Source: Vermamoeba vermiformis (Eukaryota). From it: a stretch of 27,420 nucleotides of DNA. The DNA is taken from assembly GCA_045837725.1 (NCBI GenBank), contig JBEWZL010000012.1:186001-213420 (forward strand). Reading direction: 5' to 3'. Of this stretch, positions 2,446 to 27,000 are shown piece after piece. The translations under genes and the position numbers were made by a program. The notes beneath the pieces are model-generated. The model had not been told where the DNA came from. It worked only from the letters and a program-made list of their open reading frames with translations, and did no database searches. The first letter of the stretch is position 1; each line of letters opens with the position of its first letter.

Positions 2446-5400
2446 TCAAAACTGCCTATTGAAGCTATTAACATTGGTATTAGTATTGTTATTCACATTT
2501 GGATTCGCAGTATTGCTATTATTAACAGTTTGAGGCTGCGGATTGACTCCAGGAACAGCGCCAGGTGGAGGCTGTCGCCGAGAGTATTCGGCCTCGCACA
2601 AATCCACCAGATCGACGAAAAGTCCTAAAGTCTCTTGCCCAGTAGCTGTAGCCGGAGTATTGTTAGCAGCTGCAGCTTGCATGCTTTGCATTTGCGCGAT
2701 AATGTTGGGCGGCAAGTTCATCGCTACTGGCGAGCTCATAAAGTTCTTAATGTCCGCAGCGCGGTTCGGGTTGTTCGGATCGAAGAACGCAGAGTAATCG
2801 ATAGTCTATGAAAGGCATAGTTAGTCCTACATGCGCCGATAAACAACAAGATCTTAACCGTCGAATTTTCCGACTTTTGTTACGCGGATCTGAATCCACT
2901 TACAGTTTTCTTCAGGTATGACGGCGGGTTCCAATCACTGTCGCTACCACGTGGTTTTTTAGGTCTACCGGGGCCACCGCCAATGCGTCGCCGTCTGCGC
3001 ACTCCTTCGTCATCGCTAATGTCTCCTTCGTTGCCGGAACTGTAGCCTTCACCGCCCCATTCTTCATTATCTGAGCCTTCTGCACTCGATGGACCGGAGT
3101 AATCTCTGTAAAAAGGTAAGATATCAGTACTCGAGCATTGATCAGTGTCAACAGTTTGAAACTTTGACGGATGTAGATGAGATCAAAAGAGCGTTAAGCG
3201 CGCGACGGATGATGCTACACTTAAAAGGAATTTTCCGCGAGTAAGTTAGAAATGGGCATAATAATGGAATTGAACTCTCAAGAATCGATAATCAAGTGAT
3301 GATTTTGACTGGAAGGCCAAATGCGGAGTGGATCGAGAAACACAGCAAAAGAAACTGGCTAAAGCATAGTTACTTACCCTTCGCGGCGCTGGTCAGTCTT
3401 ACGGGGTCGTCCTCGGCCTCGCTTAGCCTTCGGGTCGAATGGGTTGGGTTGCTTGGGCCTGCCTGGAACGCCAGACATGTTACGGAACATTGCCTCCTAT
3501 AGCAAAAATTCGTCAGTTTCGATTTTTTTAACTGGGTATAGTATTTGTCACTATTATTCCGTTTGAGGTTAGGCATATGCCGAACTGTCATCGTGTCTGC
3601 CGACAGGAAATAATATTGAAAGTTTAAAGGTTAAATTTTTAACCCGACAGATCTGATCCCCCTAAGATCGCTTGGATCTGCGCCTTTATAGACGACATTA
3701 AAATGATTGTTGGTAACTTACCTGTGCAAGATTATAGCCAGGCTTTTTCTTGGCCATAACTGAGGTTCCTAAAAATACCATCAGAAAAAAATCGCGTGCA
3801 TGCTGGCAAAGCTTTTGGATCTCAAAATAGAAATGTCACAAACCTTCAGACTCGCTATTAACATCTTGCGAGCTGTGTGCATCGCCCTCCAACCGCGGGT
3901 ATTTCCGCGGTCGACCGGGGCCTTTTCGTTTTTTCATCGGTAAACCACCGGCCATTTCTTGTTGTCGCGCCTAAGTAGATTAATTCTCCGTTAGCATTCT
4001 CGTTACTGACATAACACATGAAAAGATATTCTGGTTATTTCAATCTTGTTTTAAAATTTGAGATTTCAGATTGTCCACGATTGGAAAGTATCAGGGAGCT
4101 AATAATAGAATTTTTTAGGCGGTGTATCTCCGCGTCGGGCGTAAAATAAATCTCCGTCGCTAAAAATCCAGCGGCACCGAATGAAAGAGAGCTTACCATG
4201 TTCAAATCATTAATAGGGGATATAACCGGGGATGATGAGATGGGGCTGTGTGGATCTGAAGGTGAATTCGCGAGAGGGTACTTTCGGGGACGACCCGGAC
4301 CTCGTCGTTGAAAGCCGCCGCTCATATTTATCGTGATCGGCGCTGAAGATTGCATCCCTTGCAGTATTGGCGAGTTTCTGCAATCGTAAGAAATTAGTTG
4401 AAAATCAGGCTTTGCGTGCAATGACATGATAACTTGATTTTAGGGCAATTTAACACAAGAAGTTTACACGTGGTAAATCATCGCAACGTGTGAAAATGGC
4501 AATTAGATCAATTGAGAATCTACAGCAGTTAATACCAAAGTCATAAATGCTAGATTGCGAAGTGGCAAAGGAAAATGCAGATTTCAAGAGAAACAAATTG
4601 ACACGTGCTAATAATTTGAGGGAAATTCAATCGTGTACAACGCGACAATTAGCAGAGATACTCCAAAACGAGTTTGTACTAACTTGTACTTACCCAGCTG
4701 AAGGTTCGTCGGGTCTGGGGTACTTCCTTGGCCTGCCTCGTCCTCGCTTAATGACCAGATTGGACAATGACTGCAATAGCGACTATTAGTACTAAGTACT
4801 CGAAGCGATTGATTTGGATTGCAAAATTGCAAAACTGTGATGGTTGACTCGAATCACGAGGAAAACCACGTTGCATTTTTTATGGTTATTGACTGAACTT
4901 ACCGAGCTTGCGCTGCCATTCATGGGCATGTTACTCGCGGAGATAATTGAAGTTGTATGGGCCATAGGGTACTCGTTAGGTCGTGGGTATTTACGTGGAC
5001 GACCACGACCCCGTTTGACTGCGAATCCTTTAATATTAGTATTGGTCAACCATGGGTCTTAATGACATGATCAACGACATAAGGTGGATATATAGACTTG
5101 CGCGCATGCACGAATGTGATTTCTCCATCCACACGCTGATCTGTGTGCCACATCTAGTACGTTTTTTCAGATCGCAAACTTACCGCCCTGGAACTTTCTT
5201 TTTCTATCACTACCCAAGGAGTTATATACACCTCGTCCACAGTCATCGCACGGCTTTCTCTTCAAACCAAGGTGGGAAATTTCAACATGCTTCCGCCGAT
5301 CAGCACGCGCAGAAAAACCTGTAAAGGATTTTCAGAATCCAAAAGATCAATGGCTATATTGGGCAATAAACTGAATACACGGGCGAAGCGCACGTGTTAC

Positions 5401-8050
5401 TAATTTAAGAATTTTGTAATAAACTGTCAATCGTCAAGAGCTGAAAATTTTGGCTAGTTTTTGTGGGGTCTGTTTAGTCGTATGACCTCTACTTCACTTA
5501 ATTATAGTCGTGACTTACCAATGAAAATCTTTTCACAACCAGGGTACTCGCATCGCAATGTGTCATTGTTCACGCGCTTCAGTTTCTCCATTTGCGCGTC
5601 AAAATCGTCGTCATCGCTCTCATTTACGAGGTTCTTTGCGACAACATTATCTTCTGCTGAATTCTCAATGGAATTGAATTGTTCCACGGGTGGTGGGCCT
5701 TGTTCCCTGGGCTTGACTTCCGGTTTTGGAGCGTGTTCTGTGTTATTATTAGGCTCAATCTCCATTGCATTAGGATTCGCTTGCGGAGCCTGTTGCTGCG
5801 GCTGCTTTGCGGTCTCATCAACGTCCATATAATTCTCCTTGCGGTCCTCGTTGTCTTGGCTCAGATTCATCTGGTCCGCAATCATAATCGGCCGTGGGAA
5901 ACTATCGTGTAAATGGAAGAAATCCGCATGTTGGTTATCAATATGATCGCGCAGCGCGAAGTCAGCGTAGAAGGATTCAACGCAGCCCGGGAAGATGCAC
6001 TTGAAGGGCTTGAAGCCGTCGTGAAGATTGTGCACGTGGTTCTCGAGCATGTAGAACAAGTAGATGCCTAGCGATGAGTCCGCGTACTCCCCTGCTTCTT
6101 TTCTTCGGTAGTCCGTGGATGTTGAAGGCACTTGTGACTTGAGCAGAATTTTTGACTTGCGGCCGCAGTCGGGACATGGTGGCGGGACGTGTCGGATAAT
6201 GTTAGTTGCTGGCTTTGTAGGAGTCTTATTTACGGCCTATAAGAGAAGGGTTTTAGTCATTTTCACGGAAACTGCTATCAACTTGTCAAAAGACCGCGGC
6301 GGATCGCGCGAATAAATCATATGTAAATTTCATCGCCTTGCATCATCAATGTTGCAATAACAATAGTACATACCTGTGTTGCACCATTGTTATCGACATT
6401 AACTTCAGTCTTAACATCAGCTCGCTGTTGAGTATCAGCCTCGACATGCGGTAATGATGCAAGATCTATCATTGTGGTAACAGCTGCTGGCTTAGTTTCA
6501 TTAGCTTGAGCTTGTTGAGGGGCCTAATGTAATGCGTAAGACTAATTGTTCATATACTACCGTGAAATCATACTTTTGGTGGCTCTTTAGTTTCGGATGT
6601 GGAGGGTACCGGACTGTCTTTTTTAAACTCTCGTTGTAATTCTTTTCTGAATATAGCCAAGCCTATTATCAAGCTATGTCAGTTATACTGTCCAAATATG
6701 ATATTGAAGGATTATTAGGCGTTTTTGATTGCTCGTGTAACGGCTTGGAAGCTTTGCGTGCATCTGCTCTGAAAACTAATTCAAGGAATTCTTACCATCG
6801 TCTTCGCTATCCTCGTTATCTTCATCAACAGCATAGGCTTTAACTACAAAGCTATCGCTATCGCTGCCGCTGTGATCCGACGCATCTGATTCTTGTTTCT
6901 TTTCAACAACTTTCTTGGGCTTACGACCAGGTCTTCCAACAGACTTCTTGCTCGTTACACTCTCCTCTTTTGATTCGGAGACATCTTCGCCGCGCTCTTT
7001 CTTTGTTTTCTTCTGTTGTTTATTCCATTCTTTCTCGCGCAGATCCATCATCTGTTTCAAGGCTTGTTCGTGTTTCTTTTTCTCGGGAAGAAGATGAGAG
7101 GGTAGGTCTGGGGGCCGTTGTTTCATTTGTGCGCGGCGCCTCGTAGGAACTTTTTTGTAACTTTCTTTTTGCCATTCGTAAGCCTCCTCGAGCGCTTGTT
7201 GAAAAAGCTTTCCTTTGCGACCGACGGACGTAAATTTCTCAAAATTATCGTCCCAAGGTCGGATTTTATCAGGTTCCATCCATCCGCTATAGTATTAAAA
7301 CAATAGAGTTAAAATTTTGTCGTTCGAAGTGCGGCATCTCCGTCAAAAAAATTTCTTTGCATCGTCATGAAATTGAAGTTAAAATAGCGAGTGTACTCAG
7401 TGAGAAGATTAATAATCATTCATTCAGTAAAGCCCTCTTTGCGAGGGTGGAACGAGAAGATTTATCATCATAATACACTCGAATAATTCAATCAAAAATT
7501 CTAAATAAATGCTAAAAATTGTCTATAGAGTTCTACTTACTATGCATGACTTCCAAAAAAGTATACGAGTACTAAGCCTTCTCGTCCAAGCTTTTGAACG
7601 TCCGCTGAAACTTCGAGCACATCCGCCCTCTAAAACAATCGGATTCGATGTTAATAAAAATAGTCTACATATTTTTCTTAATTTTCCTAGAGGATAAGGA
7701 AGGTAATTTTATGGGTTGTAGCTTAAAATTTTGATTTCAAAATATGAAACGGATTTTAAGGATGAAGGTCAACGAACGAAATTAATCGCTTGAGTAATTT
7801 ACATATTCCTTAATTATGAGGATGATTTTAAGCAAATATTTTGCGGGCGATTTTAATTTTTTGTGACTAATCTGCTGACTTGAAGAGAAGTTCAAATTCC
7901 CTTAAATAATCCAGAATAATTTAGAATAAAATATTACTAGCAATTCCATCATATACAAATCATATAAAAGCATAGTATAATTTTATTTACCCTTGCCGGC
8001 CAAAACGGAAACCCTTCGATCTCAATCCAGCCAAGCTCGCCGTATTCCAT
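2446..8050 (-). CDS. PWWP + C2H2 zinc finger + multiple AT-hook chromatin/DNA-binding protein (~993 aa, 15 exons)
   Basis: Exons 8050-7991, 7629-7541, 7286-6796, 6662-6574, 6523-6374, 6236-5519, 5318-5184, 5027-4903, 4782-4694, 4377-4197, 3970-3844, 3768-3722, 3496-3378, 3105-2904, 2805-2446 join in frame. PWWP: GELGWIEIEGFPFWPAR...VLVYFFGSHAYGWMEPDKIRPW...LFQQALEEA. Zinc fingers: CIFPGC..DHIDNQH and CEYPGC..RKHVEISH. AT-hooks: KRGRGRPRK x3, GPGRPRK x2, GPGRPKK. Confidence 0.85.
7388..7481 (-). ncRNA. SNORD7: Intronic box C/D snoRNA, probable U6 snRNA A47 2'-O-methylation guide (mgU6-47/SNORD7/Z30 family)
   Basis: Lies in intron 2 of the PWWP gene, same strand. 8-bp terminal stem CGAGTGTA/TACACTCG; box C ATGATGA (7471-7465); D' CTGA (7427-7424); C'-like ATGATTA (7419-7413); box D CTGA (7400-7397). 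The D guide TAATCTTCTC is complementary to the conserved U6 sequence GAGAAGAUUA, and the D+5 rule points to A47 (human numbering). Confidence 0.88.
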
Positions 8051-13117: not shown

Positions 13118-16100
13118 TTACGTGTTGTTCTGAGAGTTGTCGCCCTTTGGAGTGTTCGGAGCCGAGTTGTTAAACTGTGACATTTGATGCAGATCCACTC
13201 CACTCAAATATATCGTTGTGGTCCTATTCGACGCTGTATCATCGCTCTCGTGATAAAAACTGTTGCTGTCGCTAAAATCATCGTCTTCGCCGCCATTGCT
13301 CGTCATACTCGTCATCGAATCTTTCTTGCGCAGTGACCGGTCTTCACGAGGACTATAATTGTTGTAATTGGTATTGTTGTTCAGTTGTTGCTGTTGTTGT
13401 GACCTTTGAATAGTTTGGACCCATAATTGAATGCCTGTATGGACGGCCTGGTCGTACAAAGTGGTGGATGTGGGATCCGCGTTCGTATTGTTGCTTAAGC
13501 TCGCAGTAACATTTCGTGATAATGTTTCTAATTGAGCATATTGAGGCTTCAAGCAAATTTGATTGTTTTGCTCCATGATGAACGACTTGATGTGTTCATG
13601 AATGTACCTTCCTAATAAGGTAAACGCGTCGAACAATCCTAATCGAGCGTTCATATCATTCAATGCAGACTGTGGGTTCGTATGTGCCGTGAGTGTCATA
13701 GTGTCGTAATTCAACTGCGCAAATGTCACTAGAACATCGTCCTCGTGGAACATGGACACGAGGGGCTCGACCATTTGACGAATTTTCTGCTTCAAGTTGA
13801 ACACGTTCACGTGATAGGTCGGGCCTCCAGTGGTCAGAGAGCCGGGCGTGATGCCTGGACCTCCTCGTGGCGACTGTGCGGGTGATGCAGAGACCGCGCT
13901 GGTCGGTGTAAGTGGTGCTGCTTGATCACCTGACAGCGCGACATTGACGATGCGTGACACGAAGAAGTCACGTGCCTTTTGTTTCTCGACCATTATAGCG
14001 TCGCGTGCCAGTGTTTCTATAACAAAGACGTCAGTCTCAAGCTATCTCCAGACCCGTGAAATTTCACGTACCTAATTTCTGTGGCTCGTACTCCAAGAAC
14101 TGTTGCACATTGCAGGCACGCTTTGAGGTCTCGTTGTAAAAATCTTTAATCAGCTTCAAGTGCTGCAGCTCTGTTTGTGCGCGATCCATTTGTCTGAACA
14201 ACATGTCTTTGGCCCGTTCTTTTCGTTGAGCGTGATCTTTCTTGCGCAGCTTGTCCAACTCGTTCTTTAATATTTCGGGTGTTAAGGGGCCTATAATCAA
14301 GTTGCGGAGTTGAGTTTAAACGTCAACATGTCAAATGTATATTCGCGTTTTTGAATCATTTTACCTTGCCATTGAAGTAGATCAGCCAAAACACTAGCAG
14401 GCACGACACTAAGGATATTTTGTGCTAAAAGTATACCAGGATTAATATCATAAGTATAACTCACATCGTTATCATAACACAGAAAAAACACCGTATTTTC
14501 GTATGGATCTGCCACAGTAAATTACATACCCATTGAATCATTAATAGGGAAGTCGTCGTCTAATATGATCATGATTGTTTTGTACGGGTTAATTCTAGAA
14601 GCTTCATATTGCGGGATTTTGTTATTCGCATAATTTTTAGCAATCTCTACGAACTTCTTTTCCTCTGTTCACGAACGACGATAATTAATCAAATCTGAAG
14701 AAACAATACGATATGATAATAGGCGAGGGCCTTAATAGTCTCATACCTTTCTTTAGTCGCACACGTTCCATGCCGTCCATCTTGAACGTCTCCCAATCGA
14801 ACTCGCCCAAAAATTTGTACAAGAACGTGTATTTCAATACGGGATTGTAGAACAGTGCGTACCTATTATACGTTATTAGTACATGTATATGAATATGGTT
14901 TCGTATAATAGGGATAATTAGGTACCTAAAGTAAGCTTCCATAATGTGCTTGCGTTCCACGGGGAACGAGAACTTTTTGTTCAACGTGATCTTATTGAAT
15001 AGATCGCGATAGACCAGTTCTTGATCATATAACTCGCGAACCATATTGCTGTAGAAATAGGACTTAGTTAAGACTTCACTACGGACGAGCGGATCTAGTC
15101 AAAGTAGTTACCTTTCACGTGCTTTTTGATTGTCACCTTCTTCTCGCGATAACCTTTCTAAGAATGCTATGAGTTCTTGATTAGGTTTCTTATTCTGTCG
15201 TGCATAATCTAACGCCGTCCAGCCATGATTATCCTTTGGCAGATGTATCAGTAACAACTTTTTTACGAAGTTTTTTTAAATCAGATCACGCGTACCTTGA
15301 TCGTAACAAATGGCGGGAAATAGCCCTTGCTATAGATTAAGAGCTCTATAATATCCATACGGCCAGTTTTAGCTGTAAAAGAATAAAATTAGTACTAAAT
15401 CGGAGATTTCGGGTGTAAAATCTTTGTGTGGAGAATTACCTGCAAAATGCAATGATGTGGCACCAGATTCATCGCGGTCTTTAATATCAAAGCCCTTTTC
15501 AATGCATTTTTTGACCTTTTTGATCTGTTCTTTTTGAATTGCGTGAATCAACTTGATATTGTGCACATTTTTCACTTCACGTTTTCGTTGTTCCAACAAC
15601 TTTTCTAACATCTATTGATTTGCAATATTATAGTTAGCTCAATATAATATAACCTTACTACTATCTTACCTCGCGCTCGCTTTGCAGTTTCGCTTGTTCT
15701 TGCTGCATTATTTCTTCCTTGAGTACCACTTGTTGGATGCGTTGTTCGAGCTCCTCTCGGTCTTTCTGTAATATAGGAATATTAATACCGATACTAATCA
15801 TGATTCGTAGGTCTCGGCTCAACAACATTTAAGGCATTTTCGATCGACTTACTGATAATTTCTCGGTCAATTCGCTCGTCCTTTCGAGCAGTTCGAGTTG
15901 TTGTTTTTCCAACACTTGTTTGTCTTCGTCAATTTCTCGCAACTGTCTCTTCAGGTCCTATAAGCACCACATTAGTACTGCTTATTATAAAGTCACAATA
16001 CACGCGAGTTTTCGTACTTCGATCTGTCGCAATATTGCGGCGCTTTCAAGTTGTTGCTTGTCAGCCATGTCACGCAACTTGAGTTCTTGTTGCATGACAG

Positions 16101-19100
16101 CTGCTTCGCGGTCAGCAAGCTCGCTTTCACGCTTCAACAACGTCAGTTTTTGTTCGGTAAGTCCTGCTAGTTCGTGGCTCCAATCAACCAACAATTTTTC
16201 ACGGGGAGTCGAGGCCTTCATCATCGCCAAATGTGACTCGAGCGCACTGTCGCTACTAAGGCTAGTGACAGTATTACCATGGCTATTGCTAGTCCGTGGA
16301 GACTTTCGAAGCTTTGGATCTTGCTTCCGCTCCGCTTGTTTCTGTTCGAACTCACGCCAAAACTCTAACGGCCTTAGACTCGAGGACCGTTCAATCCTAA
16401 ACAAAAAAAGTACAATCGATTAAATGGTGTCACGCGTTGTGAATTGGATCACAGATGATACGCACTTGGGTTTTTTCGTGGGAATGGCAGGCAAACTTTT
16501 CTTAGGAGGACGTCGTTTTGTCATTTCAGAAGCAGGTCCGTCGCGTTCTATAATAAAAATTAATATTGTAAGTTCGTGCTAGCAATTCAATTGAATCTCG
16601 TAACAAAAAATATACGGATAAAGTTTTGCAGAAATGCAACGAAAGGACAAAATAACAAAAATACTAAATAATTAGCGTAATTATATCATAAAATAATGTT
16701 ATATTATTAAGCTGGTCATTTGTGCGGGTGTACCTGGAGATTGCGGCGGAGATCTAGGTGAAGTTCGCATCACGATGCTGCTTTGGGGACCAGCATTCAC
16801 GGTGCTATTAATATCACGAGGAGAGCCCGGCTTCTTCTTCATGTTTTCAATGAGTTTGTTCATGGCAATCACTTTGTTCATTTCTTCTTGCAGCTCAGTT
16901 CGGTACTTGGCCACGACGACTTTATTGTTCTCTCGTTCGTGGTATAACTGCTGCGTCAATAGCCTTATCTGGTGCACCAAATCTGCTTTGCCCACGTGCT
17001 CCATAGCTTCTTCTTGCACTAGAAAAATAGAACCAGTTCAGATCAGATCCGCTCACGCACTAACGTTGCATTATACTGTCAGTTAATATATTAAGCGTAC
17101 CTTCAGGGACAGTCAAATCTTTATCCGTAGACATAGGTCCATTCGATGATCCGTTGCTCGTGGGACCTTCTGTTGGTTCAGGATTGACGTTATTGTTTTG
17201 CAGATCTACTGACCCGTGCCCGTCTGGACCTAACGCAGCGGGATCTCCAATGCCTAAATATCATTGGTCAATTCCAGATAAAATAGCACGAAGCGGTAAC
17301 AATCTAGATTAAACTAAGAATGCCAGATCTGTCGAAGTACGTGTAACGATCACGCGGATCGTCCATAAAAATTGTATTATTAGCGTTTGGTTGCAATACT
17401 TACCAGTAATGAAATAAACTCGGTCAGTTGGCATGCTCTCCAAGGTCACGGAGTTCTTGCCACCGAACAACACGATGCGTGTGCCGAACACAGAAGCGGT
17501 GTGACCGAAGTAGCTGAATGATCGTACATTCGTGGGTCCCGAGGTCGATCGAATCCTCCTAGTTTTCCAACTCAGGTCCTCTATATAAGCGCAGAGTAGT
17601 TAGGTAAAGGTAAGGTGGATCCACCGATAGAATTATCGTACCGCAGTCTAGAACATATATCCTGTCTTCATCTGTCATGCCATCTTCTAGCACTCCACCA
17701 GCAATAACAATTTTGTTACCGCCCACAGTTGCTGCAGTGTGCCATGCACGTGGCGGGGGTGGTGTTCCGAGCATTTGTGTTCGTTGCATTGTATTTGCAT
17801 CTGTTACGATAATAGTATTAACAATAGGTAATATAATTCGGAGGTGGCGGGTATGATACTAAACTGTTATTATTAGTCTTTAAAAATACGTACCAGTGTC
17901 AAAAATGTACACGTCATTGAACAGGTTTCGTTCTTTTTCACCGCCAAAGAAAACAATTCTTCGATCTACTAACGACGCAGAATGTCCTCTACGGTCATGC
18001 GGAACATCTCCGTTGAACGGTAACTTGCTCCAAATCTTCTTTGCTGTTCGAATTTAAAATTAAGTAAACGGCTCTAAAAATAGGCGGTAAAATTTTCTTT
18101 TGATAAAAAAGGCATCGTTAGCTGTACAGATGCAATTACAATGCTATATCGATATAAAAACCACGATGGATTAGCCGAACGAATAGTTTTTCCGCATTAC
18201 GTACCAATGTCGTACACGTGCATATCGTTGTAATAATATCCCGATCCAGTACCGCCAAAAATATACATCTTCTTGTTCAATAGTGTCGCAGTGTGGCCTG
18301 TTCTATAAGGCGCAGAACCTCTGAAGTTAGATTGCCTCCACTTCATTTTCTCTGGATCGACAAAGACCAGATCCGGATAAGTACTTTTTTCATCCAAAAT
18401 TACTCAATAGCGCTACGTACCGGTGTTTAATACATATAATTCATTCGTATCGGCCGATCCAGCTTTTGTTCCGCCAAAGACATATAATTTCCGCCCGACA
18501 ACTACGGCTGAATGACCGTAACGCGGCTAAGAAAAAAAAAATTAGGCTTGATTGAATGCTTAGGAAAAACGAGCATTTAAGAATTTAAGAGTCTAGTATG
18601 ATTATATGCGAGTATAAGCTGATTAAAGATTCTAAATGCTAGTTGGCTACATATTTCCTTTTAAGGCGCATTTTCGGCGTTAATTAATGTTAAAGTTAAG
18701 TGTGATACGCTTTATCCCGCTACTAACCTTAGGAACGCTGCCCGTAGTGTTACATTGCACCCATTTCATCGACCCTAAATAAAAATGAGATAAATATTCA
18801 ATTTCGAGCGGATCCGCATAAAATGAGCTTTAAATGGATACAAATTTAAAAATAAAAGCTAAATTAGCATGACGAAATAAAGAATGGCCATATATGTTCG
18901 AATATAGGCCAATAGCAAATGTTAGAAATAGCATATCAATTTGATTTTGTAACAAACTCTAAAAGATTTTGCTGGAATATGTCATGTGAAGTGACTATGG
19001 AAAAATAAATAACTAAATAAATAATAAATAACGTTAGCATTGGGGTCAATTAGCTTGTGTTATGGATTTACGTTGTGAATCTGACATTTTAGATCTTTTA

Positions 19101-19636
19101 CCTGGATCGAACATATGAAGATCGCTAAACACTGTAAATTCATTTCTTCCTCCAAACACTAACATTGAGGCACCTACGACGCATGTTGAGTGCCAGTGAC
19201 GGTTAGCTGGGATCTGCAATTACGAAAAAATGATTATTAATTGCAATTTTAAAGCCGAATAGGATTAATTACGATACTATAATACATTTTAAATAGGAAA
19301 TAATTATAAATTAGAAAATAAATGGTATTCCATTGCAAAATAAAATATTATCAATATTTCCGTTTCAGATATTATTGAATCTCCCATTATCTCCCGAAGA
19401 CCTACTTCTCCATTAACTATTTCATATTTAATCTCGCATTTAGTAGATTCTCGTTTTTTGGCGGGACTGGAAGTGGCATTCAGATCTCGAATGACTTTAT
19501 CCTCGTCCTCGGAATTAGAACTACTCTTTTCTATAATATGCTCTTCAATGACTTCATCTTCTCCGTCTTTTTTCTTCTTATTGACAAGCCGCAGACTCTT
19601 TAGAGAATCCAAACGCTTGCGAATGGATTGCGACAT
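13118..19636 (-). CDS. Six-bladed Kelch repeat + coiled-coil + ankyrin repeat protein with uncharacterised C-terminal region (~1383 aa, 23 exons)
   Basis: Exons 19636-19406, 19213-19102, 18774-18728, 18526-18421, 18351-18205, 18043-17894, 17800-17642, 17580-17404, 17253-17101, 17018-16734, 16547-16466, 16396-16018, 15957-15853, 15765-15670, 15611-15440, 15372-15296, 15233-15112, 15048-14926, 14862-14747, 14664-14530, 14424-14365, 14290-14072, 14016-13118 stay in frame. Six H[ST]..GG Kelch blades (e.g. PRYGHSAVVVGRKLYVFGG), E/Q/K-rich heptads, and ankyrins GATSLHFAAKTGRMDIIELLI and GWTALDYA. Confidence 0.8.
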
Positions 19637-20134
19637 CTAGGAATTGTTCGTTTGGCTATTCTATAATATTACCGCATATAAATCTATCATTTTAATGTAT
19701 TGTTGCAGCCTGGGCTGAAGAGAACAAAAAAGACTTCGTAATTGAACGTGTGCACAAAATGTCGAACACAAAAATAAGATTCCATCTACTCAATAATCCA
19801 AACGATTACTGACTATAGTAGGTCATCCTTTAAACTGTTGCTTAACCGTATTTCTCGGGTTTCTCTCGAGCAGTGGATCCGCTCCTGGCGATTTTAATGC
19901 CTAATTTTGGAAACAACTCGGAGCTGGCCCGATAGCACCTACAGCTGTGCAAACTATATATTAAGGAATAGCAGTCCATATTTAGTCGTATGAGTTTGAA
20001 TTATTGTTTACCATTCCAACAAAATCTTTTGATATTCATTGTAAAAATCAAATCTAGCCCAACAACCGTTTGAAATTCCAATGTAAATGAATTCATTCGT
20101 TTAATCATTAGGTTTATTATACATGTTATAGTTT

Positions 20135-22678
20135 TCAATTTGTTATTGTTTGCACGCGTCGCAAAAACTTTCTCGCCCAGATGCTGTACAAAACTGCGCC
20201 GCATGCAACTGAACCCACTGAAGTCAATACCAAATAGACGTAGTCTTCAGGGTCACTAGAAATGAAACAATTAATAAATAACCGAAGAAAATGCGTCTCT
20301 CGTGTAACGATCGGATTGCGTCTCTAAAGAACATAGTAGAGCAGTTCTAAAGAGATCTAAACCGATAATTTGTATAATATGAGGATATGTGTACTTCGTA
20401 AAATTATTAGATAAGAGCTATATAGTTTTCTAATAAAGATCTTTTTCGGTACACAGCGAGATCGAGTGAGATCGATTTACATACCTTGCTATAATACCCA
20501 ATGCATAGCTCATCAATGCAAACACATTCGTGAGCGAGTATTCAACCGAATTAACGACGCCTCGCTCTTCTTCTCGAACATGAAGTTGCATCATCTGCGT
20601 TTCAATTAAATCGAACGACCACAAAGGCGCCTATGTAAATGACCTTATTAATACAATACATGGCACCGCAAGTTAGACTAGCTTAAATAATAATTCCAAA
20701 GTTCACAAACGAGATTCAGGGAAGTGTGGATCGACTCCATGAATCCGGATAAAATATTTGATTTGTAAGTTACTTGATAAAGAATATGACGTACCCTAGA
20801 CAGAATGATCGGTACCAAGAAGAACCAGACGTTGATATCGAAGTAGAAGTAGGGAACAGCACCTGCGATCAGTACGAGCTGGAACCAAATTGAATAAAGA
20901 CCCGTAATTTCCAATCCAAACTATAAATGCACCATCAGTACCCCAAATACATGTTTGTAGTACAGATGCTAATTGATTTAGCTGAACGAAACGCAAACTC
21001 GAGCTCCATCCGCAACCAGTAATTCCATTTCTTCGTTATATAACTTGACGTACCTTAGATATGAGCCACGGAGTCAAAAATGTAGCAGTAATACCAAAAG
21101 TCGAAGCTAGAGCTTGAAATACACCGACTTCAATGCTCGAAACATCGCGTGTACCCAAGTACGCTAACGAAAAACAGATCAGCTAAAGAACTTTAAATTG
21201 CACATAGTATGAAAGCATATACGCTGTTATAACGATTTGTAGTATTAAGTTGATTTTTGAAAGGATCCAAATTTTTCTCAGATCGTGTAACGGACAGATG
21301 TAGGATTGGGTTGTTGTATAGAAGTTCAATAAATACGTACCTGTCATTAATGAGCCAGGGCTAAGCACAGTCAAGTACAGGAACACATAAGCAAAGCTGC
21401 CTAAGAATACTGACTGCGCGAAGTACAACTTCCAGCCCTTGAAAATCATCAACAGTTGATTAGGCTTGCGCTTAGGTGGATCAGGTGGCGGCGGGGCTTG
21501 AATTTCATCGGAGTTCACGTCGAGTTGTGGATTTGGTGCTGCTGCGTGGTTTGTGCTCGGGATCTCTTCATCTTCTACATTTTCTTCGTAAAATCCTCCT
21601 TTAGGCATTGCTAATTGCGGTACCTCTCGATAAATGAAATGGTACATAGTCATTTCTATGAATAAATACGATTAGTAAGCGTTTCTGGCAGTTCCTTGCT
21701 TTAACCGATCCTCGATCTACTACATAAAGCTGAATTCAAACAGCTCAATATGTATATTAGCGAATAATATATATGAGATATGTTGCGCTTAACATTCAAT
21801 ATGAGCGCATTGTATAAAGTGCAAGGTACATCCGCCGAAGCGTGTACTGGCTTGAATAAGACTTACCAGGAAAGAACGAGCATATATTCCATGCAGATAC
21901 AAATATGAGCGAGACATACACCCCTGCAAACTGCAACAATGCGCTGAATACTACTGGCGTAAACACTTTACAAAACAAGTCGATCCGACGCACGTTGGCA
22001 TTAGTCTCTGTAATAATATTACGTTAAGATTATATTGTAATGGAGACTATAATATGAGTAATATTAGTATTAATTTAACGAAGGCGTACCTGATAATCGT
22101 TTTTCAGCCGCTGGATGTGTTTTACATAACACGATCGTCCAATCTTTCGCAATTGAAATCTAGGAATATAATATTAATATTGTACTAATATATTATCCTA
22201 TCAATGCTTACACTTGTAGCCATTGAAGCTACGGCTGATGTTGCAGAAAAAACATTGAGTGCGATGAATAATAGGATAAAACCAGCCGATTTAGGGGGCA
22301 GATCCTATACGGAAATAAGAGGTTATTATGATTATACTTTATTATGATAATAGACACTACTTACGTTATCAGCCGGAAAAAAGCGAAAAATTAATATTAA
22401 CAATACAAAACTGATTATTACAGAAGTGTTCTGCGATACCAATGATATTCTAATCACTATAATATGACAATATGAGTCATATAATACCAATATAGACCAT
22501 ATCTAGTGTTGTACGCACCTTTCAATCGGTTGTATTTATCGATCCAGTAGCCGACGGCAGATCCAGTCAGAATTACTGCTAGCGTCGCTACAAATGATAG
22601 TATACTAGGCAATAATAAAGAGCCACGATACAGTTCTGAGAATAGAAGCGGCACTGAGAACGTCCACATTTTTTTTTT

Positions 22679-22718
<40 letters not shown>

Positions 22719-23551
22719 TTTTTTTTTGTTTTTTTTTCTTTTTTTTCGCTTTTCTCTATCTTTTGTTGTTCTTTTTTGTTTTTTTTTGAGAGTCGGTGGT
22801 GTAGGAGGGTGGGGGTTTGTAGTGACACGCGATGGTGGGGTGGCTAGGTGGGGGGGCGAGTTGGCAAGCGCTGTGATGGCTAAGACAGTGGGTCGTGGGC
22901 GAAGGCGTCAGTAGGAGGGGGGGGGAGTTGGCAGGAGCAAGGCGTGCGGAGGGAGCGGGCGGCGGGCGGGGAGGGGGGGCACAAGAGAGGGGGGCGGGGG
23001 GGAGGAGCGGGGGGGAGGGCGGGGGGGAGGGGTCTCAGTACGACTTCGTCCCCGATCTCCCTACAAAATTATCGGGTATTTAGAAAAAGCACGAAAATGC
23101 GAAATACATTTGAAAACGAGCTTACCCATGATGATAGGAACGTGGCTATATACAAAAAATAATAGGGCTCTACAAGCAACGTAAGCATCTGTATCCGAAA
23201 GGCGGGCATCGATAAAAACCCGCAATTTGACACAAAAAACATCACAACAATTATTTTGTGTTATATATAGGCATTATATCATTTTTATAAAGAGGTAAAG
23301 AGTATATTAATTAATCAATAAATATGGCGCCAATTTGAAAATGAGAAAAATATTATTTGAAATTGGATTGATCGTTAATTATAAGCACATAATTAAATAC
23401 GCTACTTACTATATGATATTACAGAATATATTGAATTCAAATCTTGTTGCCTTCGTTGCTCGAGATCGTCGTCTTCAATCTGCTTGTCTAAATCGTCTGC
23501 TTCAAGCGGGACGGTGTCTCGTGTATTTTTAGTGGCATTATTCAATTCCAT
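20135..23551 (-). CDS. SLC40A1: Ferroportin / IREG (SLC40 family) metal exporter, ~519 aa if the exon-3 insert is removed; interrupted as assembled
   Basis: Exons 23551-23410, 23169-23126, 23060-23052 + 22669-22519 (split), 22456-22365, 22304-22212, 22159-22090, 22007-21867, 21655-21341, 21163-21054, 20920-20795, 20630-20485, 20255-20135. Family motifs: LYIATFLSSWGDR/MWTFSV, ISIAKDW, TNANVRRIDLFCK, YLTVLSPGSLMTAYL, SRAPLWSFDLIETQMMQ..V.EEERGVVNSVE. Confidence 0.92.
22669..23032. repeat. Poly-T tract decaying into T-rich, then G-rich low-complexity sequence
   Basis: Nearly pure T at 22669-22727, T-rich to ~22787, and G-run-rich at ~22788-23032. The composition is unlike the rest of the window. 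Confidence 0.9.
22670..23051 (-). mobile_element. Poly(A)-tailed insertion inside ferroportin exon 3 (possible retroposon/SINE-like insert; interior may be low-quality sequence)
   Basis: On the minus strand it begins GGACGAAGTCGTACTGAGAC, continues with a C-rich body and ends in a ~60-nt poly(A). It sits exactly between the codons GGA GAT CGG and ATG TGG. It has no GT..AG ends and no visible target-site duplication. Confidence 0.45.
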
Positions 23552-24055
23552 CCCATATTAGCCCATATAATAAATATCTAATGGTTTGGTGTTCAACCGC
23601 AGAAAAAATTACAAAAATGAACTGATTGCGATAATTTTGAAATGAGGCTTAAAAATAAGATTTGAAGCATGATATAAGTATGGTGCTGTTATATAGACGA
23701 CTAAGAGTGCTTTTATGAAGTTTTGTTGAGGATTCGTGGTCTGAAAACGTGTTAGAAATTCCGCAACAGCGCGACCCCGGATCAAAACGTTTAAGATGAC
23801 AAATCTCAGTGTGATTTCAGGTGGTCTTATCCACAACTTGTAATTCAAAGTGAAATGAATCTCTGAATTAATTATTTTGCCTAATATGGTCAAAACCCTG
23901 CTTGAAGCCCTGAGCGGTGAACCACGGCCAAACCAAAAGAGAATTCCGAGCAAGGATTCATGACACCATAATCGCAACAACAACCACCAGTATTTATTTA
24001 TTTTTTGTTGCGACGCATCTTACGTCATAATTCCAAAAAATAAAATGAAAATATT
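23552..24055. promoter_or_regulatory. Probable bidirectional promoter/5'UTR region between ferroportin and MAP2K
   Basis: About 500 bp separating divergent start codons (23551 on minus, 24056/24062 on plus). Inferred from position only. Confidence 0.5.
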
Positions 24056-24061
24056 ATGACA

Positions 24062-27000
24062 ATGTCGAAGAAAGGATTACGATTAACGCCTATTATCACA
24101 GACGCTGCCAAAAAATATAAGTAAGGATTTTTTAAATTACTAACAAAGTTAGAAACTTGAGATCGTTTCACTAATTTAATTTACAACTTGATCAAGCAGT
24201 TTGCCTTTATTTTCCTTTCAATTTGCCATATATACTATTAATATATCTTTGTAATAATATTTTTCTTCATAATAGCTCTGACCCAACAATCTTGCGGGTT
24301 CAGGACAACATCACCATCGGAGAACACGGATTGCTGGTCAACGGCGAACGGTCTTCTATTATAGGTAATGATCGATCATGTATTTATATGAAGCGTATAT
24401 TGCGTTAATTGATAGGCAGCTATACCATTTAAATTTGAAATCTGAGCGATCGGATCGTGGGAACGCCTCAAATGCTGTTTCAATAGCGAGTAAAAAACCT
24501 ATGCGGCACATTATTTGCAAAAATATCGAAGATATTTCTCCTGCCTCATTAAAAGCCCCGATATCACGCTCAGATCTAATCTTTATTTTTCAAATTGATT
24601 CTTTCAATATTAAAGCACTAAATTTCGCCGAATTGCTCAAATCTACGGCAATTAAGTGTAAAATAGGGTTAATTGCTTGTGTGGTATTTGCTGCACTCCA
24701 ATTATTTCAGTTTTTAAGGCATTGCAAATCATCTTTCAGAACTTGGTCGGATGCGACTAATTTTTCTTTACATTTATTACAACGATAATAATGTATGATA
24801 TCTTTGGCAATTAATCCGCTTTTTCGTGCTTCCGCTCCTCGGCCTTTTTTCCTTATTTAACCTTATTTCCTTTTATAGAAGGATTGACGGACCTCGAAGA
24901 CATATGCGTCCTTGGATCTGGTGCTTGTGGTATAGTAAAGAAAGTGAAGCATAAAACATCGAATCAAATTTATGCGTTGAAGGTACGTAGCAGTCGTTTC
25001 AAAAAATTTTTTCGAAATCTGTTTTTTTGAGAACGCTCGTCGAAATTAGAGCAATTTATCGTGTTACGAGCTCGGAAAAAATCAAAGCATATTGGCGGAT
25101 ACCTAGTCCGCTGGTCTTCGTGGACCTACAATCAAGTTAACGAATCGGATCTACTTTTAGATCGATAAATTGACTGAAAAATCGATTCAAATATGCCATA
25201 ATAGCCATTTAAATCCATTAAAAATACCATTTATGATTATTATACCATTTCTTTGTTAATTACATTGCATTATTATTCAGATTACATTTGCAACTACTAA
25301 CATTCAATTTGTTTTTGCAATAATTAGACTGTTACAGCTGAAATAGACGACAAAGTGTTGAATAAGCAGCTACTAGAATTAAAGACATATCATCAAGTAA
25401 GTTGAGCGCATAATTTCAGTTTTTTCAGATCCGATCGCGATCTCTGAAAACACCAGCACGCTCTAACCCGAAAATTGCTATTTATAGTCCAACCATCCAT
25501 ATATAGTATCATTCTATGGCGCATTTTATACAGAAGGACGGCTATCGTTTGTTTTGGAGTATATGGATGCCGGAACTTTAGCAGATTTGATTAAAGCGGG
25601 ACCGATTCCCGAGAACGTATTAGCAAGATTAACAGCTCAGGTACTATACTTAATATAATACTATAATTATCGAGCTAACTCTTCGTACAGATTTTAACTG
25701 GCTTAGAATACCTGCATAAACAACTTCATATTATTCATCGCGACATTAAACCACAAAATATATTGATAAATAGTAAAGGTACGTATACATAGACTATTAT
25801 AAGCATGTACCGTACCATAGTTATCCGTTCATAAGATCCAGTACGCGGCCAAAAAATTTCGGCCAAATATTTTCCGAAGAATTTTCTCGCAAAATGGCTC
25901 GTAACCATCGATCCACCGTTATTGAGCACAATATGCCCTAATATGACCATACTAATGCTATATCGTTCTAATTTCATGCTTAGGTCAAGCTAAAATTACC
26001 GATTTTGGCGTCAGCGGCGAAATTGCTCATACGCAAGCTATGGCAAAGACTTTTGTAGGCACAGCGAAGTACATGTCGGTAAGTAGTATTATATGCATCA
26101 TAATAGATCCATATTTATCAATTTAACGGCGTTAGATTCGATTTTAATATTTGTTTTTCTAGCCGGATCGGATTGCGGGCAACGTTCATTCAGCGAAGAG
26201 CGATATTTGGAGTTTAGGACTCGTAGTATTAGAATGTGCCTTAGGCAAGCATCCTTATGAAGCTAATAAGCGGAATTCAGGGTAAGTCTTATCGTCCATC
26301 TCGATCGGTCAACTTGCGAGATCTTTATTTGATTCTAAACATCGAAATTTTGTCTTATAAATAACCATAATAAGCGTAAAATAACGAATAGTTATAAATA
26401 TTTTTAATGATTCGATCCGCTGCGTAATATTAGCGTAAAAAGTCTTCTTACGATCCATCCAAATTTTTTTCCGCCGCAACAGCGGATAAACTTAACAGCT
26501 ACTATATCCAATATAATCCTATTATATGAATACCATACTATATACAATACTAACGGACGATATATCTTGCCAGATCTTCCTTTTTTGAGTTGTTGAACGA
26601 CATTGTAAGACAACCCCCGCCAATGCCTCCCAGTGACAAATTTTCCCCTGAATTTGTGTCATTTATTCGTGACTGGTAAGGACTATAATCAGTTAATATT
26701 ATGACCCCTATAATGAAATTAACGATCGAATTTTCAGTTTGCAAAAAGAAGAGGACAAACGGGCTGATAGCACGTCACTACTGGTAAGTCTGAGTCATTA
26801 TTAGTATATTATTAGATATATATGGCCTATTTAAGTAATAATACGCTTATTATTGCACGTTGCATATTCGGAGCAATTCCGATGCCGCGGCGATAATTAA
26901 TTTTTTTATGACACTTGACGTTTTGTTACAATCTTGCAATTGCAGACACTTTAATATATACTTCAATTGTATGAGGCATACGACTGACGGAATAATTCTA

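Follow-up and report, generated by a model that had tools for sequence, protein, structure and literature searches.

A probable heterozygous DNA-transposon insertion in the ferroportin gene of Vermamoeba vermiformis, hidden by low-complexity assembly sequence

DNA transposons that encode transposases with a C/DxxH signature form a group of superfamilies, which in the part of PMC10045372 used here includes hAT, P and Kolobok. MULEs, as described in the sections of PMC6446971 on which we draw, generate target-site duplications (TSDs) of 8-11 bp, and one of them, Spectre, has a C2H2 finger along with 74-bp TIRs and an 8-bp TSD. Where their ends are defined, Dada elements have no TIRs; their TSDs measure 6-7 bp and their targets are small RNA genes, at least according to the sections of PMC3706591 and PMC8869645 considered. 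For Dada-U6_DR, the motif residues C389, C394, C429, C432, D567, D635 and E811 are given, with gaps of 135, 68 and 176 (PMC3706591, in the same sections). Dada and several other superfamilies are listed without a Pfam domain in the portion of PMC5751038 considered. Here, we describe a locus of V. vermiformis at which the reads entering an apparent SINE in an exon of the ferroportin gene lead into the terminus of a TIR-bearing element that shares some traits with MULEs and others with Dada.

The ferroportin gene and its insert as assembled

The window analyzed here, i.e. the whole stretch of 27,420 nt to which positions refer unless a contig or locus is named, corresponds to G000:C12:186001-213420 of an assembly of 43.3 Mb in 309 contigs. 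It contains the single FPN1 locus of this assembly: all four FPN1 matches fall inside the gene specified in Table 1, two exons of which match the Pfam profile with E values of 5e-12 and 4e-12. Eleven GT-AG introns provided by the RNA-like run X3 lead to a stop-free ORF of 519 aa for the empty allele, in agreement with the original prediction that the remaining exons are intact and free of stops. The gene is a ferroportin and iron export is predicted from the FPN1 match over the intact multi-exon ORF. GDRMW makes up residues 63-67 of the 519-aa protein, and the aspartate of GDR is presumably the metal-binding residue. On the basis of ORFs and motifs, one neighbouring gene is labelled as Kelch-repeat coiled-coil and another as MAP kinase kinase-like (window 13118-19640 and 24800-26300).

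Table 1. Features of the ferroportin locus, with positions in the window
Feature	Position	Strand	Basis
Ferroportin exon 1	23410..23551	-	ATG at 23551; X3 splice joint 23169/23410; ORF
Ferroportin exon 2	23126..23169	-	Splice joints and GT-AG check
Ferroportin exon 3, first 8 nt (GGAGATCG)	23053..23060	-	Inferred left TSD copy; X1 graph fork at 23060/23061; 8-bp TSDs in related elements
Ferroportin exon 3, remainder (MW...)	22519..22669	-	X1 loose end at 23052 has the letters of window 22649-22669; bridge by X2 record 10; Pfam FPN1
Ferroportin exons 4-6	22456-22365, 22304-22212, 22159-22090	-	X3 joints, GT-AG check, ORF
Ferroportin exons 7-9	22007-21867, 21655-21341, 21163-21054	-	X3 joints, GT-AG check, ORF
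Ferroportin exons 10-12	20920-20795, 20630-20485, 20255-20135 (stop included)	-	X3 joints, GT-AG check, ORF
Intron 2 markers of the minor haplotype: 3 SNPs plus 2 small indels	23068..23111	.	Same contig as transposon end; X2 record 11
True left end of DNA transposon, GGGACGAAGTCGTAC	23038..23052	-	Covered by read contigs, whose next 13 (X1) or 12 (X2) letters are those of the C208 end
C-rich assembly junk (C = 147/247 nt)	22791..23037	-	Depth absent in X2 and X3, and in X1 bin 22767-22893
A-rich assembly junk, apparent poly(A) tail (A = 103/121 nt)	22670..22790	-	Read-contig depth; X20 reads partial

On the minus strand of the assembly, the acceptor AG (23062-23061) is followed by GGAGATCGG (23060-23052), an insert (23051-22670) and ATGTGG from 22669. 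A break of the exon between GDR and MW with 382 nt in between had been noted before, and the assembly contains it at exactly these coordinates. The insert had been described as a 20-nt head, a C-rich body and a poly(A) tail, with an interior resembling collapsed sequence. This last impression proved right: the bin 22767-22893 has a depth of zero in X1, X2 and X3, and so has the bin 22894-23020 in X2 and X3. In X1, a summed depth of 2150 falls on this second, G-rich bin and probably stems from low-complexity contigs. Read support covers only 15 nt of the insert as assembled (23052-23038), and beyond 23038 the reads diverge and enter a TIR terminus. The head is thus real up to 23038, while its last 6 nt are junk at which the reads continue differently; the C-rich body and the poly(A) tail are not borne out. 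This 368-nt body is assembly junk. Its C-rich part reaches a best match of E 0.15 when compared with the transposon. The A-rich part takes the place in which the right end of the element, another copy of the TSD and a single host base are expected; X20 reads on it are partial, 90-95% alike, and have poly-T loose ends.

Of the four other places in the assembly matched by the insert, three turned out to be noise tracts of the same kind, and the fourth is simply a stretch of poly-T. Noise tracts that ramp into homopolymers were seen at C13:523.2-524.2k (L003), C266:269.6-270.3k (L005) and C239:241.3-241.5k (L006). The first is flanked on both sides by GTTCATAACAC, as judged by eye, and the second features a 6-nt direct repeat. 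It is conceivable that these three tracts hide further heterozygous insertions.

Two alleles at the insertion site

Of 23 runs, four were compared with the window: X1, X2 and X3, which represent one sample, probably the assembly's own, and X20. Runs X4-X19 share few words with the region and do not enter the evidence. X20 is from a divergent strain (0 of 88 placed reads at >=99%) and uninformative on the allele, and the evidence from X1, X2 and X3 consists of assembled contigs, not raw reads. Words of the region 21200-24200 are present at a fraction of 0.85 in X1 and 0.83 in X2, and 0.87 is expected without the junk body. Contigs of X1 and X2 represent both an empty and a filled allele, which part exactly at the GDR-MW point, and the empty allele is the major one; the earlier suggestion of a recent or heterozygous insertion is thus upheld. 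In X1, the empty-allele contig passes from 23052 directly into the letters of 22649-22669. In X2, it is record 10 (614 nt, depth 69) that bridges 23141-23052 to 22662-22146. Contigs of the filled allele cover 23038-23141 with the SNPs of the minor haplotype and then exit the assembly sequence; record 11 of X2 (119 nt) has 3 other letters and 3 gaps. The filled allele has a depth of 180.5 of 519.9 (about a third) in X1 and of 25.7 in X2. At four sites within window 20270-23300, the minor share in X1 amounts to 0.31-0.40, which is nearer to 1:2 than to 1:1 and possibly points at triploidy or aneuploidy.

Following the 15-nt head, the filled contigs run on for 13 (X1) or 12 (X2) letters that match the end of contig C208 exactly (27/27 with the head). 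The first 14 nt of the head have 12 matches in the assembly at <=1 mismatch, two of them exact, and the second exact match is the last 14 nt of C208, to which the 13 loose letters of the filled contig adjoin. The filled allele thus joins, at its left junction, exon 3 of ferroportin to letters identical with the terminus of the element on C208. An adapter origin of the head was considered and dropped, as the head matches the end of C208.

The original prediction held that no host sequence is duplicated. This is true of the assembly, but the real allele is probably not devoid of a TSD. Neighbouring contigs in X1 overlap by 30 nt, and this overlap is the basis of the break-point arithmetic. The empty-allele contig stops after 9+21 nt and record 6 begins 16 nt (7+9) beyond 22662, from which it follows that a second path joins at 23060. 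A fork at 23060/23061 is just what would be expected if the right end of the element were followed by another copy of GGAGATCG. We therefore infer an 8-bp target duplication GGAGATCG at ferroportin, with the right junction placed by contig break points rather than read letter by letter. In X1, the filled contig breaks off 28 element letters and 2 host letters further on, an outcome expected if the copy on C208 had an 8-bp TSD of its own, GTGTCGCG, ending in CG. In X2, the filled contig ends one letter before the prediction from C208 only (12 versus 13), and a further copy of the element is a possible reason. A 9-bp TSD with GG ends was dropped in view of a third G/C in 3/3 readable element ends and of the 8 bp given by the relatives.

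The 11 GT-AG joints identify X3 as RNA. Its main mRNA contig (depth 182) continues beyond 22662 by 37 nt, a length consistent with 7+9+21 nt across the empty site. Another contig, of depth 38 (side 22), contains the joint 23059/23125 and thus has exon 2 spliced to exon 3; this joint is placeable only if the contig continues into the element head, which means that spliced RNA enters the element. The frame of the filled allele stops at codon 80 if its copy matches that on C208, and this allele is probably null. Contrary to the proposed knockout of an iron exporter, the cell keeps an intact, expressed allele, as the uninterrupted form predominates both in DNA and in spliced RNA. The coverage listed for introns 1 and 2 in X3 comprises minor-haplotype letters only (20.6/20.6 and 22.8/22.8). 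This may reflect intron retention or, the contigs being strandless, antisense read-through from the second gene of the element, which is oriented that way.

We regard a heterozygous insertion of a cut-and-paste DNA transposon in exon 3 of ferroportin, hidden by assembly junk, as the best explanation, with a probability of roughly 0.86. On one haplotype, integration of a DNA transposon would have led to a duplication of the 8 bp GGAGATCG. The assembler would then have averaged long molecules of the filled and the empty allele into 368 nt of low-complexity junk and kept 15 true bases. In filled-allele transcripts, exon 2 is spliced to exon 3 and the sequence enters the element, where translation would end at codon 80; the full 519-aa transporter is made from the empty allele. 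The ferroportin copy is presumably of full length, though it may be internally deleted. That the assembled 382 nt are instead a real SINE or retroposon without TSD, as originally proposed, is very improbable. An A-rich 3' end in sense orientation, the X1 depth on the one G-rich bin and the X20 reads on the poly-T part are in accordance with this idea. However, the A-rich tail, the only feature in common with a SINE or processed retroposon, is apparent in the assembly and absent from the junction reads, which leave the assembly after 15 nt and enter the TIR. A copy family and a head derived from tRNA, 7SL or 5S RNA are likewise missing. The search for other head copies followed by C-runs and poly(A) found the 20-nt head a single time in the assembly at <=2 mismatches, and the whole insert retrieved itself and 7 low-complexity matches only. 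Rfam yielded one chance match on 22500-23200 (E 3.6) and the window is without tRNA. Hardly more credible is a pure assembly artefact in a gene that is uninterrupted on all chromosomes. The empty allele is indeed the major one and 368 of the 382 nt are without read support, but a haplotype-specific junction into the transposon end is found in X1 (depth 180) and X2 (depth 26), and a spliced form of it in X3.

Slightly more weight, though still little, may be given to a rearrangement by which the 5' part of the minor-haplotype ferroportin gene is joined via the element to the C208 flank, such that the copies at C208 and at ferroportin would be one and the same. C208 ends exactly at the left end of the element, the host sequence upstream of it could not be located, and the complete element is present only once in the assembly, namely on C208. 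Yet it follows from the fork at 23060/23061 that a right junction lies inside ferroportin, and the 28+2 overlap implies a separate copy with a left flank that ends in CG, as would the C208 TSD. Unlikely, but to be taken more seriously than any of the former, is a real insertion that consists of a short non-autonomous derivative or is confined to some of the cells instead of being a fixed heterozygous allele. Just 28 nt of the ferroportin copy have been seen, and the minor share is 0.31-0.40 and not 0.5. The same minor share is, however, observed at insertion-free sites, and ploidy or depth bias fits better than mosaicism. Either variant would be a refinement of the heterozygous insertion rather than its opposite.

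The transposon on C208 and its relatives

C208 terminates in a stretch of 4,452 nt (L026:5549-10000; about 4,454 bp with the terminal bases) that is bounded by an imperfect TIR pair of 67 nt with 76% complementarity (L026:5549-5615/9934-10000) and has GGG...CCC ends. It contains two intron-containing genes in head-to-head arrangement, whose starts are about 63 nt apart. The first encodes a transposase of 647 aa, stop-free from an internal Met and of the DDE type with a DxxH motif; its exon limits are manual assignments based on GT-AG signals and not on RNA. Upstream of it lies a C2H2-finger exon (zf-H2C2_5, below the cut-off at E 0.0012) that may be joined to the transposase via a non-canonical intron, for a total of perhaps about 740 aa. 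The second gene (ORF B), oriented opposite to the transposase gene, is an ORF of about 340 aa for which a tblastn match is absent from 11 related loci. A AAAGTTTAAACTTT-like motif is found repeatedly in the two TIR regions and in numerous introns within L026:5549-10000, and a TAAAGTGTAAAG-like one in the relatives L100-L103; these motifs are possible candidates for transposase binding sites.

Just as at ferroportin, the C208 copy is situated in a gene, in this case in an intron (L026:5300-5548); one exon of this gene is M28 peptidase-like, a label that we assume from a motif. The idea that C208 is a giant viral insert was rejected in view of its low ORF density and of host-type genes along all 21 stretches. 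Receptor-like tyrosine-kinase genes, labelled from sequence, make up a large, tandemly expanded family with 45 matches (L048-L057; start of C208, and C150, C143, C198 and C179).

A third site of the C208-type element is present at C260:443553-444094, where a host exon, 350 nt of C-rich junk and about 190 nt of the right end of the element (88%) follow each other, which makes this the second copy of the element to have been collapsed into junk. This copy (L107:3500-4150) lies in an exon of a membrane-protein gene, and all three sites fall in protein genes. Protein searches led to seven related loci. Six of them have TIRs of 41-77 nt, and TIR ends were not found in the relative on C145 (L104). 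TSDs of 8 bp are exact in four of the six TIR-bounded relatives, agree in 7 of 8 positions in one and are cut by the contig end in another; one of these was flagged by script and the others were read from printed flanks. Two relatives are 99% identical over 6.1 kb and reside at different loci. The family is apparently active. Internal tandem arrays with a unit of about 140-155 bp lie between the two genes of some relatives (L100:6180-7464, L102:6096-7468, L103:3390-4066). Alignments of the family conserve CxxH, DHTYK, TD, DxxH and GTxxxExWH; alignments A4 and A5 were left out because of misplaced last-exon fragments.

In metagenomes, five loci among 251 candidates encode relatives, one of them with D2, DxxH and E in a single exon of 357 aa. 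The metagenomic relative L116 exhibits perfect inverted repeats of 291 bp (3328-3618, 6418-6708; also L117:2108-2178), each of which starts with a complete, inward tRNA-Gly(TCC) gene, and an 8-bp duplication is absent directly outside. None of 64 candidate relatives on viral contigs was confirmed. Homology searches among longer proteins, for which one exon and two alignments served as queries, returned no hits in 3/3 cases. HMMER against 1.84 billion representatives gave 9 hits, which were rejected: eight are short fragments and the ninth is a repetitive protein of Hydra that lacks any aligned stretch. A PDB sequence search resulted in chance hits only.

Affiliation of the transposase and meaning of the locus

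No exon of the family reaches the Pfam cut-off, and the MULE and Transposase_mut profiles give no hit at E up to 1, including the 357-aa exon with D2, DxxH and E. With this metagenomic relative's exon, the nearest Atlas entry is an oomycete cluster auto-named 'MULE transposase domain-containing' (0.94, 181 shared features, no common Pfam), and the best Pfam-bearing row is a cluster with DUF6729 on 16% of its members (0.86). We take DUF6729 to be the Dada finger region; its profile has no match in the element loci. The last transposase exon scores 0.85 at best in Atlas and gives no lead. Structure models are of low confidence (pLDDT 40 and 55), and fold searches ended without a significant match, which is no argument against an RNase H fold. 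The motif residues of the transposase are C100, C108, C137, H140, D271, D341 and E502, with gaps of 131, 70 and 161, and the D, D, DxxH and E residues are putatively catalytic. TIRs, a TSD of fixed length (in the relatives) and D, D, DxxH, E in an open frame are all present, and by these features the element is predicted to work like a C/DxxH cut-and-paste transposon.

The combination of TIRs, an 8-bp TSD, a DDE transposase with DxxH and a C2H2 finger is known from MULE/MuDR elements, e.g. Spectre and Mutyl, and some MULE/MuDR clades also have a second ORF (both from the sections of PMC6446971 mentioned above). Unlike MULE/MuDR, the family transposase is without a Pfam MULE or Transposase_mut match. 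DHTYK, DVWH and variants were not found in three supplementary text files of PMC6446971. With Dada, the family shares DDE plus DxxH, introns and a similar motif spacing, as far as the cited sections of PMC3706591 go. It differs from Dada by its 41-77-nt TIRs, 8-bp TSDs, unrelated targets in protein genes and by H as the fourth zinc ligand (CCCH). A tRNA scan found none in the window and none in 9/9 loci scanned in the own genome. Strict Dada membership fails on ends and targets. The ends of hAT and P elements are CA and the TSD of Kolobok is TTAA; neither is seen in the family, and Pfam hits to the domains of these three superfamilies are absent. What is shared with them is the C/DxxH signature (PMC10045372, in the part used here) and, for hAT and P, a TSD of about 8 bp (PMC3706591, likewise).

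Only tentatively do we propose that the family constitutes an undescribed, currently mobile DDE lineage in which a Dada-type transposase would be combined with a second gene and with ends of the MULE type (TIRs and an 8-bp TSD, without target specificity). If true, the lineage would show Dada before TIR loss and RNA-gene targeting, and the metagenomic relative with tRNA-Gly inverted repeats could be a step between MULE-like ends and the Dada state. A description of a TIR-bearing Dada-like family was not found in searches of the openly accessible literature.

A transposon in an exon is ordinary. Noteworthy are a family that is matched by no profile used and an artefact that serves as a marker of hidden insertions. 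What looked like a SINE knockout is most probably a heterozygous allele with a DNA transposon, and the locus illustrates that real insertions can lie concealed behind low-complexity tracts of a few hundred bases in this assembly. The element, whose transposase is intact and which occupies three recent sites in a single genome, may lend itself to native mutagenesis in a microbial eukaryote and, if the transposase is related to Dada, would offer a testable case for the origin of target-specific DNA transposons. The ferroportin allele itself may serve as a natural half-dose test of a single-copy ferroportin.
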